Assembly (NCBI GenBank): GCA_041690395.1
Contig: JAWLHJ010000003.1
Coordinates: forward strand, 608,001-672,000
Reading direction: 5' to 3'
Origin: Longimicrobiales bacterium
GTDB lineage: Bacteria; Gemmatimonadota; Gemmatimonadetes; Longimicrobiales; Gaopeijiaceae
Length of the DNA stretch: 64,000 nt
Positions within the stretch are counted from its first letter, which is position 1. Each line of letters starts with the position of its first letter. The position numbers and the translations under genes were made by a program. Shown one piece after another: positions 23,062 to 27,600 of the stretch. The notes beneath the pieces are model-generated. The model worked only from the letters and a program-made list of their open reading frames with translations. It made no database searches and was not told the DNA's origin.

Positions 23062-25695
23062 TCAGCTTCCCACCAGCGCGTTGAAGAGGAACTTGAAGGT
23101 CCCGTGCGTCTGGGCCCTGTGCTGCGTGCGGAAGCCGATCATGAGGATCTCGCCCTCACCGTGATCGATGTGCAGCATGGCCGCCCTTCCCGCGATCAGG
23201 TCCTCGCCGTCGAGCTGGCCGCTCTGGAGCACATCGTCCCGCCAGTACGACGCCACCCGGCGCACCCGCTCCCCGTCCGAGGAGCGCTCCACCTCGTAGA
23301 CCTGGTTGTCCCCGAAGAACACGACCCAGGCATCGTCCGGCATGCCCCACGCCATCGGATGATCGGTCTCCACGTCGACCCGCAGCGTCGAGCCGTATGC
23401 CCAGAACTCGGAGTTCGGCACGTCGGCGACGACGTTGCGAATCGGCACGTCGAAGCCGTCCAGGACGAGGTCACCAGCCTGGGCGAACGTCACGAGTCGT
23501 CCGCCCCCTCGCACGAAGGCCTCGAGCGCCTCGACACCGGCCTCCCCGAATCCGCTCCGGTATTCGGGCGGCATGGAGGTCATCTGCTCCTCGTCGTCGG
23601 AGCCCATCAGCGTCTCCAGATCGTCGTCAGGCACGATCAGGACGTCGATCCGGTCCGCGAGCCGCCCGGAGAGCACGTCGGCGTCCATGATCGTGTCGTA
23701 CGGGAAGCCGAAGTCCTCGATCATGAGCCGGGTCCACCCCTCGTCCATGTTGCCGCCCCAGTACCGCTGGAACATGCCCACGCGGAGGCGCGCGGCCTCC
23801 GGCGCGTACTCGTCGCCCGCGTCGACGTTCATGGCCAGGAAGTCGACACCGGTCTCACCGGCGATCCGCGAGGCCACCGCGTCGGACACGTCGGGCACCC
23901 AGAAGTCGCCGGCCGCGTGCGGCCCGTGGTCGCTCACGAACCGGTGCACGGTGACGCCCTCGTCCCAGAGCATGTTCACCGCATGGAAAGCGTCGTTGAG
24001 GTTGCCGGGGATGTGGAAGCCCTCGCTCCCCCGGGTCACCTCGCCCGTCGGGTCGGGGCGCGTCGCCACCAGGTCGAGTGCCGCCTCGACCTCGCCGCCC
24101 GCGGGATGGACCTCCACGCCCATGAACTCCGCGAGCACGTCGGCGCTCATGTCGTACGGGCGGATCGGGCTGCCGTCGGGGTTCCGCGTGTAGCTGTTCT
24201 GCGGATAGAACGTCCGGCCCAGCAGGTAGCGGATGACCCCCTGCTTCGGCTGCGCCATGGACACGACCCACGAGCCCGCCGGATAGAAGCGGCCCTCGTG
24301 CACGAAGTCCTCCGACGACCGATGCACGTCGACGCCCTGGAGGAGCAGCTTGTCCACGAGCTTGGTCGCGGTGAGCGGGTCGTGCTGGTCCGCCGAGATC
24401 AGGTAGACCCGGGTCTCGGCCTCGGCGCCCCGCCGCGTCTGGGCGAGCGCCTTGCGCGCCGTGTTGCGCAGCTGGAGCTCCCGGTTCCGCGCCGCGATGT
24501 CCAGCGAGGCGAAGGTCGCGATGTTGATGTTGGTGACGATGTCGCGCGTGCTCCACCACCCGCCCGGCCAGGGGCTCGGGAAGGTGGTCTGCTCCTCGTA
24601 CTCCGGGAGCTGGCGCGATCCGGTGAGCTGCTCCGGATGCACGTAGATGGGCGAGGCCATGTCCGCGCTCGCCGACTCCGTCAGCATGCCGGCGATGTTG
24701 TGGAACGGCGTGATCCAGTGGAAGCCGAAGTGGCCCCAACCGGAGTAGATCGCCGCGCCGATCACCCCCTGGCGCCCCTCTTCCTCGAGGCGGTACCCCA
24801 TGTGCGCACCGTACCAGTCCATCTCGCGCCACACCAGCGGGTCGGCACCGGGCCGCACCGGCTCCGCATAGGGCGGGATGTACATGCGGGCGGTATAGCC
24901 GCCCATCTGGTGATGATCGATGAAGGCCTGCGGTATCCAGTCCCGGAACAGGATCTCCGCGCCGTACTGCGACTCGACCGTGGCCTGCATGAACGCGTCA
25001 CGGTTGTTGTCGTGCCCGATGTAGTGATGATAGAGCTCGGGAGGGCGCGTCGTCTCGTACTCGGTGCCGACCTGCTGCCGGTACCAGTCGGTGACGATGT
25101 GGTTGCCGTCCGGATTGAACATCGGGATCTGGATGGCCACCGTCTCGTCGAGGATGCGCATCATCTCCTCGTCGTCGCGCGTCGCCATCTCGTAGAGGAT
25201 CTCGACCGACGCCTGACTCGGCGCCACCTCGGTCGAGTGCAGCCCGTACGACTGGACGAGAACGACCTTGCCCCGCTCCACAGCGTCGTCGATCTCGGCC
25301 TGGCTCCGGCCGCGCGGGTCCTGCAGGAGCGCGTTCAGCCGCTGGATCTCGTCGAGGTTCGCCAGGTTCTCGGGGCTCGAGACGAAAATCACCAGGAACG
25401 GGAGCCCCCGGGTGGACGTGCCCACGTCACGGACCTCGATCCGGTCGCTCCGCTCGCCGATCATCTCGTAGTACGGAAGCATCTCGTCCCACCGCACCAG
25501 CTGCCGGTCTGCGCCCATCACGTGGCCGAAGTACTCCTCGGGCGACGGGATGGCCTGCGCGGCCGCGGACGCGACCGTGGCCAGGCTCAGCGCGACGGCC
25601 AGCGCCAGCACGGAAGCCGAGCGCAGGGTATCAGCCGCGCCTCGCTGCAGCGGTCGGAGAAGTCGGTTTCGTAGGGCCCTGGGGCTCGAAATCAT
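23062..25695 (-). CDS. Secreted M14 zinc carboxypeptidase with C-terminal GATase-like domain
   Basis: Signal peptide, LHSTE, NPDG, DNNRD, DHHQMG; start is uncertain. Confidence 0.85.
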   Translation of the reverse strand: MISSPRALRNRLLRPLQRGAADTLRSASVLALAVALSLATVASAAAQAIPSPEEYFGHVMGADRQLVRWDEMLPYYEMIGERSDRIEVRDVGTSTRGLPFLVIFVSSPENLANLDEIQRLNALLQDPRGRSQAEIDDAVERGKVVLVQSYGLHSTEVAPSQASVEILYEMATRDDEEMMRILDETVAIQIPMFNPDGNHIVTDWYRQQVGTEYETTRPPELYHHYIGHDNNRDAFMQATVESQYGAEILFRDWIPQAFIDHHQMGGYTARMYIPPYAEPVRPGADPLVWREMDWYGAHMGYRLEEEGRQGVIGAAIYSGWGHFGFHWITPFHNIAGMLTESASADMASPIYVHPEQLTGSRQLPEYEEQTTFPSPWPGGWWSTRDIVTNINIATFASLDIAARNRELQLRNTARKALAQTRRGAEAETRVYLISADQHDPLTATKLVDKLLLQGVDVHRSSEDFVHEGRFYPAGSWVVSMAQPKQGVIRYLLGRTFYPQNSYTRNPDGSPIRPYDMSADVLAEFMGVEVHPAGGEVEAALDLVATRPDPTGEVTRGSEGFHIPGNLNDAFHAVNMLWDEGVTVHRFVSDHGPHAAGDFWVPDVSDAVASRIAGETGVDFLAMNVDAGDEYAPEAARLRVGMFQRYWGGNMDEGWTRLMIEDFGFPYDTIMDADVLSGRLADRIDVLIVPDDDLETLMGSDDEEQMTSMPPEYRSGFGEAGVEALEAFVRGGGRLVTFAQAGDLVLDGFDVPIRNVVADVPNSEFWAYGSTLRVDVETDHPMAWGMPDDAWVVFFGDNQVYEVERSSDGERVRRVASYWRDDVLQSGQLDGEDLIAGRAAMLHIDHGEGEILMIGFRTQHRAQTHGTFKFLFNALVGS

Positions 25696-25799
25696 GGAGG
25701 TACTCCGCGATCGGTCTGGGGTTGAGGTCCCTTCGGGATAACGTCTTCGGCCCACGGATCGCAAGTGGCGCGCTTGTGCTTCGCGCCGATTCCGGACAT

Positions 25800-25837
25800 G
25801 AGAAAGCCCCGCGGACCAGGTGGCCCGCGGGGCTCTC
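25800..25837 (-). terminator. Terminator downstream of tRNA-Asn
   Basis: GAGAGCCCCGCGG...CCGCGGGGCTTTCTC. Confidence 0.75.
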
Positions 25838-25843
25838 GCATTA

Positions 25844-25916
25844 CTGGGGCGGGAGGGTTCGAACCTCCAACCTCCTGGTTAACAGCCAGGCGCTCTGCCG
25901 GTTGAGCTACACCCCA
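25844..25916 (-). tRNA. tRNA-Asn (GTT), CCA not encoded
   Basis: Cloverleaf with acceptor TGGGGTG/CGCCCCA-G, anticodon arm CCTGG-CTGTTAA-CCAGG, T-loop GTTCGAA and U1:A72 pair. Confidence 0.97.
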
Positions 25917-25973
25917 TACGCTTGGCGGGTTCGTGCCGATGACCCCCGCCGATCGACACTCCCCCACCAACGC

Positions 25974-26007
25974 AAAACGGCCGCGATCCCCTGGGGACCG
26001 CGGCCGT
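25974..26007 (-). terminator. Attenuator terminator upstream of tRNA-Asn
   Basis: ACGGCCGCGGTCCC-CAG-GGGATCGCGGCCGT followed by TTTGCGTT. Confidence 0.75.
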
Positions 26008-26030
26008 CTCGTCGTTCCGATTTCGTTCGG

Positions 26031-26108
26031 CTACGCGAGTCCGCGGTCGCAGTCCCCATTGGGATTGCGATTCATATTCGGATTCGAGTTGCCGCGCGTG
26101 TTGTTCAT
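26031..26108 (-). CDS. Asn-rich leader peptide (MNNTRGNSNPNMNRNPNGDCDRGLA)
   Basis: 8 Asn in the first 17 codons (3 AAC, 5 AAT); ATG lies 6 nt after the -10 element. Confidence 0.78.
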   Translation of the reverse strand: MNNTRGNSNPNMNRNPNGDCDRGLA

Positions 26109-26114
26109 GCACCG

Positions 26115-26143
26115 ATTATCACGAGGAGGGTCCGATCCGTCAA
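26115..26143 (-). promoter_or_regulatory. sigma70-type promoter giving a leaderless transcript of the Asn leader and tRNA-Asn
   Basis: TTGACG-17nt-GATAAT-CGGTGC-ATG. Confidence 0.75.
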
Positions 26144-26152
26144 GCCGTCTCT

Positions 26153-27133
26153 CTATCCGCCCGTCTGGGACAGCGCCACGAGCCCACCCGACCCGACCGC
26201 GCTCCCCTGGACCAGATGGTGCCGCTCGGGCTTCACCCGCAGCGTCTCCTCGATCAGCGGGCGGATGTCGTCGCCGGCGCGGAGCGGGTCGCGGAGATTC
26301 GTCTGGAGCGACCCGAACAGGCACGGGCGTAGCTGCCCGTCGGCCGTGAGACGCATGCGGTTGCAGCGGTCGCAGTAGTTGTGGCTCATCGGGGTGATGA
26401 CACCGACGGTGCCGGGCGCTCCCGGGAAGCGATGATAGCGTGCGGGTCCGTTCCCGAACGGCCCGTCCACCGGCTCGAGCTGTTCGATGGCGCGCACCCG
26501 CCTGAGCGCCTCGGCGCACGACACGAAGCTTCCGGCGCTCAGGTCGAGGTTCGCCCCCGTCGGCATCATCTCGATGAAACGGATGTGCCAGGGTCGCTCA
26601 CGCGTGATCCGGGCGAAATCCTCGATCTCGTCGTCGTTCTGACCCCGGATGAGCACGACGTTGATCTTGATGGGCGCGAAGCCCGCTTCCTCGGCGGCCC
26701 GGAGCCCGTCCATGATCTTGGGATACGAGCCCGGACGCCGCGCGATCTCGTCGACGCGGTCGGGCCGGAGCGAGTCGAGGGACACGTTCAGCCGGTGGAC
26801 GCCCGCGGCGCGTAGCGCGTCGGCGTGCTCCGCGAGCAGCACCGCGTTCGTCGACAGCGAGAGATCCTCGATCCCCGGCACCCTGGACAACATGGCCGCC
26901 AGCTCCGGAAGGTCGCGGCGCACCAGCGGCTCGCCCCCCGTGATCCGAACCCGCTTGAGCCCCATGCCGGCCATCGTGCGCACGATCCGCTCGATCTCCT
27001 CGTAGCTCAGGAGCGCTTCGCGCTTCAACCAGGGCAGCCCTTCCATGGGCATGCAGTACACGCAGCGGAGGTTGCACTTGTCGGTGACCGAGATCCTCAG
27101 GTACTCGACGCGGCGTCCGAACTGGTCGATCAC
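26153..27133 (-). CDS. moaA: GTP 3',8-cyclase (Moco biosynthesis)
   Basis: YLRISVTDKCNLRCVYCMP, CDRCNRMR...PCL, C-terminal GG. Confidence 0.97.
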   Translation of the reverse strand: MIDQFGRRVEYLRISVTDKCNLRCVYCMPMEGLPWLKREALLSYEEIERIVRTMAGMGLKRVRITGGEPLVRRDLPELAAMLSRVPGIEDLSLSTNAVLLAEHADALRAAGVHRLNVSLDSLRPDRVDEIARRPGSYPKIMDGLRAAEEAGFAPIKINVVLIRGQNDDEIEDFARITRERPWHIRFIEMMPTGANLDLSAGSFVSCAEALRRVRAIEQLEPVDGPFGNGPARYHRFPGAPGTVGVITPMSHNYCDRCNRMRLTADGQLRPCLFGSLQTNLRDPLRAGDDIRPLIEETLRVKPERHHLVQGSAVGSGGLVALSQTGG

Positions 27134-27600
27134 GATGCGTCTCCCGTCGTCGCGGTCGCGGACGCTCCGCCGGATCCCGGCGGCGCGGTCCCCTCGACCC
27201 AGCTCGCCTCGCCGTCCACATAGCGCTCCTTCTTCCACACCGGAAGGCGCTTCTTGATCTCCTCGATGACGTACCGGGACGCCTCGTACGACTCGGCCCG
27301 GTGGGGGCTCGACACCGCGATCGCGACACTCACCTCGCCGATGGCCAGCTCGCCGGTGCGGTGCACCACGGAGAGCCGGTCGGTCCCGAGCGTCTCCGCG
27401 GCCTCGCCGGCGATCTCACGCAAGACGCCGCTCGCCATGGCCTCGTACGCCTCGTAGTGCATGCCCCGCACGGAGCGGCCGTCCGCGTGGTTCCGTACGA
27501 CGCCCAGGAACAGCAGCACCGCCCCGTCCTCGTCGGAGCCGACGTGGGCGAGGACCCGCTCCGGGTCGATGGGGTCGGATTGCACGACGGCGCGCACCAC
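27130..27600 (-). CDS. moaE: Molybdopterin synthase catalytic subunit
   Basis: FLGVVRNH, YEAY, HRTG, SPHR, PVWKKE. Confidence 0.95.
   Translation of the reverse strand: MVRAVVQSDPIDPERVLAHVGSDEDGAVLLFLGVVRNHADGRSVRGMHYEAYEAMASGVLREIAGEAAETLGTDRLSVVHRTGELAIGEVSVAIAVSSPHRAESYEASRYVIEEIKKRLPVWKKERYVDGEASWVEGTAPPGSGGASATATTGDAS

Follow-up and report, generated by a model that had tools for sequence, protein, structure and literature searches.

The window analysed here is a 64,000-nucleotide stretch of a Longimicrobiales genome (Gemmatimonadota; contig JAWLHJ010000003.1, positions 608,001 to 672,000). On its minus strand, a tRNA-Asn(GTT) gene (25844..25916; ARAGORN, Rfam score 70 bits) is preceded by a promoter, a short ORF and several competing hairpins. 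The sigma70-type promoter, TTGACG-17-GATAAT (26115..26143, with the -35 box at 26143-26138 and the -10 box at 26120-26115), is the sole promoter-like site in 25000-27000, a region in which shuffled sequences would be expected to give 0.1. An ATG at 26108 sits 6 nt past the -10 box, and transcription is predicted to start at or adjoining this codon, i.e., the ORF would be leaderless. The ORF (26031..26108, minus strand, its TAG ending at 26031) has 25 codons, eight of them for Asn (5 AAT and 3 AAC). All eight fall within the first 17 codons, the final one 8 codons short of the stop. With a genome-wide Asn frequency of 1.8% (GC content 69%), eight or more Asn in 24 codons is far from chance (7e-9, uncorrected for the choice of site).

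Two segments of the leader may compete for pairing. Segment 1 (26061..26070), which lies inside the Asn codons, pairs with segment 2 (26044..26057) to give a hairpin of -13.2 kcal/mol, and folding indicates that segment 2 may instead act as an antiterminator by pairing with the 5' arm (26006-25993) of an intrinsic terminator hairpin (25974..26008, -30.2 kcal/mol). This terminator is a GC-rich hairpin of 14–15 bp followed by a tail of four U; the U-run is short, and the element was not called by a consensus terminator scanner. A spacer of 57 nt, in which no promoter-like site was found, separates it from the tRNA. Within the spacer lies an 8-bp hairpin (25933..25959, minus strand) with four pairs showing two-sided change, the compensatory changes being found across the five genomes of the genus, in an alignment whose rows from outside the genus align poorly. 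An overlapping alternative helix is also present, and the hairpin is possibly a precursor-processing or second control element. A downstream hairpin-U terminator (approximately 25801..25835; -38.2 kcal/mol for 25795-25843) closes the unit, which contains the tRNA alone and no biosynthetic or synthetase protein gene. Apart from the spacer hairpin, these elements had been described in the original prediction, and their coordinates and pairings were reproduced.

The upstream neighbour outside the unit is moaA (GTP 3',8-cyclase; 26153..27238, minus strand; TIGR02666, 369 bits). In the relatives G004 and G005 the leader and the tRNA lie 2–3.5 kb distant from moaA with the unit intact, the leader having stayed beside the tRNA. 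In the leader-bearing loci that were read, neither asnS nor asnB was seen between leader and tRNA, which speaks against a relic of an asnS or asnB attenuator. Within the genome, an ATG ORF with at least three Asn in the 330 nt upstream was found for 1 of 49 tRNA genes, the controlled tRNA-Asn itself, and for none of the 48 others. Comparison with Rfam gave no T-box riboswitch at the gathering score or at E-values up to 5, and chance matches only over the leader. RNA reads from four runs, none of this strain, yielded one 165-nt contig with adapter-like ends over 25831-25966 (six differences, depth 5); no contig reached the leader, and such contigs cannot show transcript ends.

The genome carries a second tRNA-Asn gene, a canonical copy (C1:235595) behind a plain promoter. 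The two genes align with a score of 51 of 73, and the controlled gene represents a second, divergent form of tRNA-Asn, with U1-A72, G2-C71, G3-C70, A15/U48 and G73. Elsewhere in the genome, we observed partial or duplicated sequences of tRNA-Val, tRNA-Lys and tRNA-Ser (G000:C4:417131, C5:383854 and the start of C7), as left by element integration.

To analyze conservation, we searched 60 relatives by DNA similarity and found the leader together with the tRNA in four further genomes of the genus and in three other genera of the family. A survey of the phylum then covered the DNA upstream of second-form tRNA-Asn genes at 125 loci from 124 genomes, a leader being defined as an ATG ORF of 10–40 codons with at least three Asn. 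Such an ORF was present at 36 loci; one of them, G139, was removed from the leader set because its three Asn lie in a distantly placed ORF and a terminator was not seen, which left 35. L218 was left out likewise. An Asn-rich ATG ORF combined with a hairpin-U terminator was found at 35 of the 125 loci, in 16 genera and three families of Gemmatimonadota, so the conservation upstream of tRNA-Asn that had been proposed as a check is present in relatives. The 35 leader sequences are widely diverged between genera, and Asn accounts for 19% of their residues. The last Asn is placed 5–14 codons ahead of the stop, and the distance from the -35 box to the ATG is 35 nt in all eight leaders of the family and 35–39 nt in 30 of the 35. 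Promoter, leaderless ORF, hairpins that compete for pairing and the tRNA-Asn(GTT) gene thus form a real, conserved unit. A leader was absent from all 19 loci of the canonical tRNA-Asn form.

The other 90 of the 125 loci did not qualify as leader-bearing, although two of them have GTG-started leaders (G264 with five Asn, G309 with two). At G194 (L093) the terminator is kept, with no Asn; at G253 (L155) and G266 (L154) the promoter lies directly ahead of the hairpin; and G103 (L355), from outside the 125 loci, keeps the layout with one Asn. In these four the leader appears to have decayed or been deleted while the hairpin was retained, which suggests repeated secondary loss of control.

A GTDB-wide pattern scan detected the leader with its terminator at at least 11 loci among the 80 matches listed, two of which repeat loci of the phylum survey, and at least 77 of the loci among these 80 matches are titled as Gemmatimonadota lineage; the second form occurs, among others, in records titled Gemmatimonas sp. 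Records titled outside the phylum with the tRNA pattern were also observed among the matches listed (L226 and L228; Actinomycetota and Acidobacteriota). The Actinomycetota-titled record has a plain promoter upstream of the tRNA; the Acidobacteriota-titled one has a terminator end ahead of a tRNA whose form is identical to that of Gemmatimonadaceae copies, and is possibly misbinned. DNA matches to the terminator region in G039, G045 and G059, which belong to another family, were rejected: there is no tRNA there, and no leader was seen near these regions among the matches listed.

We then analyzed the folding of the leader. The whole leader folds with z = -4.66. In a transcript cut at the terminator loop, the minimum free energy (MFE) structure is the pairing of segment 2 with the terminator 5' arm at 13 of 14 positions, the very pairing that had been proposed. 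When a ribosome was placed on Asn codon 13 or 15 of the window's cut transcript, segment 2 paired with the terminator 5' arm in the MFE structure; with the ribosome on codon 17 the arm took a shifted partner, and with the ribosome at the stop it was almost free. When the full-length RNA was folded to equilibrium, the terminator prevailed whatever the ribosome state modelled; therefore, any switch must be co-transcriptional and kinetic.

Across the 35 leaders, a measure based on pairing probability was passed by four loci (above 0.5 on stalling, below 0.2 at the stop), because GC-rich arms find weak partners. The energy needed to free the terminator arm was adopted in its place after this result had been seen. 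The mean cost over the 35 leaders was 15.9 kcal/mol with the ribosome on the best Asn codon, 14.2 on the last Asn codon, 6.8 with no ribosome and 3.6 once it had reached the stop; the window's own leader gave 20.5 (best Asn), 11.9 (last Asn) and 3.9 kcal/mol (stop). Since this contrast between stalling and stop is partly built in (more masking leaves fewer partners), segment 2 was shuffled as a control, which lowered the mean cost from 14.2 to 7.1 kcal/mol. Values clearly above the shuffles (matched by at most 3 of 60) were found at 23 of the 35 loci; the other 12 were not clearly above them. In addition, pairings between segment 2 and the terminator arm of the same lineage had a mean of -22.3, compared with -17.0 (sd 4.3) for cross-lineage combinations.

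The original prediction had also called for covarying stems in relatives. This was borne out for the terminator and the spacer hairpin, whose covariation exceeded that of all shuffles (0 of 500) in an alignment of eight relatives; in the terminator, 100% of cells are paired and three pairs show two-sided change. For the antiterminator, covariation in the eight-sequence family alignment was not above shuffles (52–174 of 500). Taken together, the modelling predicts an antiterminator that is mutually exclusive with the terminator, being open when a ribosome rests on the control codons and blocked when it reaches the stop.

The dominance of the terminator at equilibrium, the absence of the leader at most loci, and the cases in which a terminator or a degenerate ORF stands alone (G194, G103, G253 and G266) would all fit a relic, or a constitutive damper with no response to Asn, in which the terminator merely lowers the level of the second tRNA. 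A precedent is given in PMC1262725: the Streptomyces ilvB leader looks like an attenuator, and its codons did not regulate. However, despite the divergence of the leaders, 16 genera have kept the Asn codons, the length of the ORF, the spacing of the promoter and the lineage-matched pairing of segment 2 with the terminator arm, and we regard a relic or damper as quite improbable. The trp/his-type layout recognized in the original prediction has gained support from the same features, and we consider it highly probable that a ribosome-controlled transcription attenuator precedes the second tRNA-Asn gene.

Support for this layout also came from elsewhere in the genome. At G000:C2:746952 (plus strand; locus L363), a His-rich leader ORF of 26 codons with six His lies directly behind a promoter. 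It precedes hisG, is accompanied by a hairpin-U terminator, and shows almost the promoter spacing of the Asn leader, with 36 nt between -35 box and ATG; it is predicted, judging from these features, to be a leaderless his attenuator in Gemmatimonadota. Thus, the attenuator layout would also be found in its textbook place in this genome. A further Asn-rich feature was noticed as well: at least seven long ORFs on contigs C2, C3, C4 and C7 of G000 end in a closely similar C-terminal motif, an Asn run followed by two terminal Cys, and form a paralogous family.

The Asn codons of the 35 leaders differ from those of the genome, with an AAT:AAC ratio of 94:65 (59% AAT) compared with 2005:16917 (11%) genome-wide. 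This bias, together with the presence of tgt in the genome, might indicate that the leader reads AAU decoding, e.g., the queuosine status of tRNA-Asn, rather than the supply of asparagine. The Asp, His and Tyr codon families (GAT/GAC, CAT/CAC and TAT/TAC) are also read by queuosine tRNAs, but in the leaders these codons are neither enriched nor biased toward U (GAT 4, GAC 16, CAT 5, CAC 9, TAT 1, TAC 1), and a bias toward A/U also keeps segment 1 weakly folded. Sensing of wobble decoding is therefore, in our judgment, the most improbable of the readings. An Asn-Arg-Asn motif is frequent and occurs in most of the 35 leaders, where CGA accounts for 19 of 132 Arg codons; motif and CGA codons may tune stalling.

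In the controlled tRNA, G2-C71, G3-C70, G4-C69 and G26 are as in the tRNA-Asp of the genome. U1-A72 and G73 occur in the controlled and canonical copies alike, and the sequences compared retain both of these features along with the GTT anticodon. C2 is found in all ten distinct canonical-form sequences; in the second form, G2–G5 are fixed by the search pattern itself. G31-C39 was rejected as a mark of the second form, G31 being present in 8 of the 10 distinct canonical sequences and A31 in 36 of 118 second-form sequences. According to PMC9976931, U1-A72 is a determinant for the amidotransferase GatCAB, and G2-C71 is strictly conserved in bacterial tRNA-Asp and is a minor AspRS determinant. Judged by these bases, the controlled tRNA combines a tRNA-Asp-like acceptor stem (G2-C71) with the GatCAB determinant U1-A72.

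The genome (98% complete) encodes AspRS, AsnRS and GlnRS-YqeY, all passing NCBIfam cut-offs, as well as GatB and GluRS; the AspRS is single and of bacterial type, and ORFs upstream of gatB resemble GatA and GatC as judged by eye. GatCAB (matched through GatB) is present while GlnRS makes it unnecessary for Gln. AsnA and AsnB were not found in this 98% complete genome, whose only AsnB-family match is weak and lies inside a protein that reads by eye as MnmA. For the combination of AsnRS, GlnRS and GatCAB without Asn synthetase, PMC4206432 infers tRNA-dependent Asn synthesis. Inspection of the DNA upstream of aspS, asnS and gatCAB of the genome revealed no Asn-rich ATG leader.

To examine the relationship between the second tRNA and GatB, we used a sample of 300 genomes from the phylum; G212 was left out, 46 genomes with no tRNA-pattern match were dropped from the tables, and "two-copy" denotes at least two tRNA-Asn pattern matches. 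Full-score GatB was detected in 129 of 132 two-copy genomes compared with 74 of 122 single-copy genomes, and two copies were found in 2 of 36 GatB-less genomes, both of them fragmented drafts. Sequence comparison confirmed the second form in 111 genomes of the sample, and 108 of these have full GatB. Among GlnRS-bearing genomes, full GatB is present in all 50 with two copies and in 23 of 67 with a single copy; in the window's family, the corresponding numbers are 15/15 and 3/30. Because the genomes are kin (19 of the GatB-less ones belong to one genus), this split is to be read as a pattern and not as a P value. Weak GatB matches, with E-values between about 1e-39 and 1e-58, were tallied separately. 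They come from 16 genomes (e.g., G118, G121, G168, G282, G328 and G340) that show weak GatB_N matches only, most of them with GlnRS and one tRNA-Asn, and may represent a divergent or decaying class of GatB. As a separate observation, most genomes of family f7 show neither enzyme at the thresholds used, GlnRS and GatB each being detected in 4 of 23.

The original prediction had proposed a direct tRNA-supply feedback loop. Its target, a tRNA-Asn gene, stands; the proposal is incomplete in that a second, canonical copy lies behind a plain promoter and the controlled form tracks GatB. In such a loop the attenuator would work, and the second tRNA would be no more than a decoding reserve, which AsnRS would charge as it does the first copy and which would be called on once tRNA-Asn as a whole ran short. 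All the attenuator evidence fits it, and so do the presence of AsnRS in 79 of 80 genomes, the discriminating appearance of AspRS at one known position, and the AsnB-family genes of most leader-bearing relatives (26 of the 29 sampled across the phylum, and 3 of 5 others). On the other hand, it leaves unexplained why control always falls on the divergent form, with a leader at 0 of 19 canonical loci, and why two-copy genomes keep GatB despite GlnRS (50/50); moreover, extra uncharged tRNA would presumably be of no help during Asn starvation in a genome in which no Asn synthetase was found. We consider a plain supply loop rather unlikely. Since the second form is distinct and tracks GatB, the controlled tRNA is likely, on these comparative grounds, a regulated "biosynthetic gene" of tRNA-dependent Asn synthesis. 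The same counts bear on two other associations: the leader does not mark AsnRS-less genomes (AsnRS in 79/80), and it is not supported as a mark of AsnB-less genomes beyond this genus.

The AspRS is the main weak point of this reading. Two of its features, a His/Leu position and the PEG turn, bear on it; we take both to be important for discrimination. At the former, the enzyme of this genome has Leu, as does the Asp-only enzyme of Thermus, where the non-discriminating Pseudomonas enzyme (4wj3) has His; its PEG turn is Pseudomonas-like. Leu was present in all 21 parsed sequences (9 of 30 loci did not parse), with or without the second tRNA, and no AspRS signature of second-tRNA genomes was seen among them. 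The special tRNA could compensate for this Leu, or Asn-tRNA may not be made along this route.

The same lack of a matching change in AspRS would suit a role outside decoding, in which the Asn attenuator works and the divergent tRNA is, for instance, a regulatory RNA or a donor of aminoacyl groups to the synthesis of envelope components or peptides. A strongly divergent tRNA body conserved across the phylum does imply a distinct partner. However, control by stalling at Asn codons suits a tRNA that restores the decoding of Asn, the sequences compared have not lost U1-A72, G73 or the GTT anticodon, the second tRNA co-occurs with GatB, and no transferase gene stood out beside the tRNA in an unsystematic look at the loci read. 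A non-decoding role is therefore very improbable.

We somewhat favour the reading that the attenuator turns on the divergent tRNA-Asn when Asn-tRNA is low and that this tRNA is the AspRS/GatCAB substrate for making asparagine; the dedicated-substrate part is the weaker step of the two. A ribosome would initiate at the 5'-terminal AUG. When Asn-tRNA is plentiful, it would reach the stop and cover segment 2, leaving the terminator free to fold and to halt transcription near 25974. When Asn-tRNA is scarce, it would stall on the AAU/AAC codons, segment 2 would capture the terminator 5' arm, and the polymerase would read through into the tRNA. The single AspRS would then load aspartate onto the second tRNA, with its Asp-like acceptor stem and U1-A72, and GatCAB would convert the aspartate to asparagine, giving Asn-tRNA without free asparagine and relieving the stall. 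In the asparagine-replete state, the canonical tRNA and AsnRS would suffice and the second tRNA would be shut off.

The architecture resembles that of E. coli trpL, hisL and pheL, of pheST, and of Streptomyces trpS and leuS, all of which combine a short ORF rich in a single amino acid with 1:2/2:3/3:4 hairpins and a terminator. Unlike these classical attenuators, the element described here would sense Asn and would control a tRNA in place of an enzyme operon; the targets given in the available texts of PMC1262725 and PMC4007540 are biosynthesis and synthetase genes only. The leaderless start has a parallel in Deinococcus deserti, for which 14 leaders are predicted to be leaderless in the accessible part of PMC4007540. 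In the full-text literature searched, subscription papers and supplements aside, we came across neither a leader-peptide attenuator that acts on a tRNA gene nor any Asn attenuator; this statement does not extend to table S9 of PMC4007540, which holds the 14 D. deserti leaders and could include an Asn case.

The T-box of Clostridium acetobutylicum, studied by Saad et al. in 2012, reportedly controls extra enzyme genes. It resembles the proposed system in that the AspRS/GatCAB route is controlled at the RNA level in the presence of redundant Asn pathways, and its control of tRNA-dependent amidation is cited in the available portion of PMC4206432; it differs in that here the sensor would be the ribosome and the regulated part the tRNA. 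The same portion names Bdellovibrio, Legionella, Staphylococcus aureus, Thermus and Deinococcus as bacteria that form Asn-tRNA by two routes. Bdellovibrio and Legionella share with our genome AsnRS, GlnRS, GatCAB, one AspRS and no Asn synthetase, but neither a division of labour between two tRNA-Asn forms nor regulation of a tRNA gene is described in that portion for the two-route bacteria.

If this is true, ribosome-mediated attenuation would extend to a new amino acid, Asn, and, with a tRNA gene, to a kind of target new to it, and a pathway would be controlled via its tRNA scaffold rather than its enzymes. It would also offer testable answers to two questions raised in PMC4206432: how the work is shared between the routes in bacteria that possess AsnRS as well as GatCAB, and how Asp-charged tRNA-Asn is limited when asparagine is plentiful. 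Two tRNA forms in one genome would constitute a natural experiment on the identity rules of AspRS and AsnRS, and might yield a route-selective tRNA. In the broadest reading, to which we give an even chance, Gemmatimonadota have split tRNA-Asn into an AsnRS form and an AspRS/GatCAB form and regulate Asn biosynthesis by attenuating a tRNA gene; the tRNA would then be the rate-limiting "biosynthetic gene", and tRNA identity, not enzyme specificity, would pick the route.
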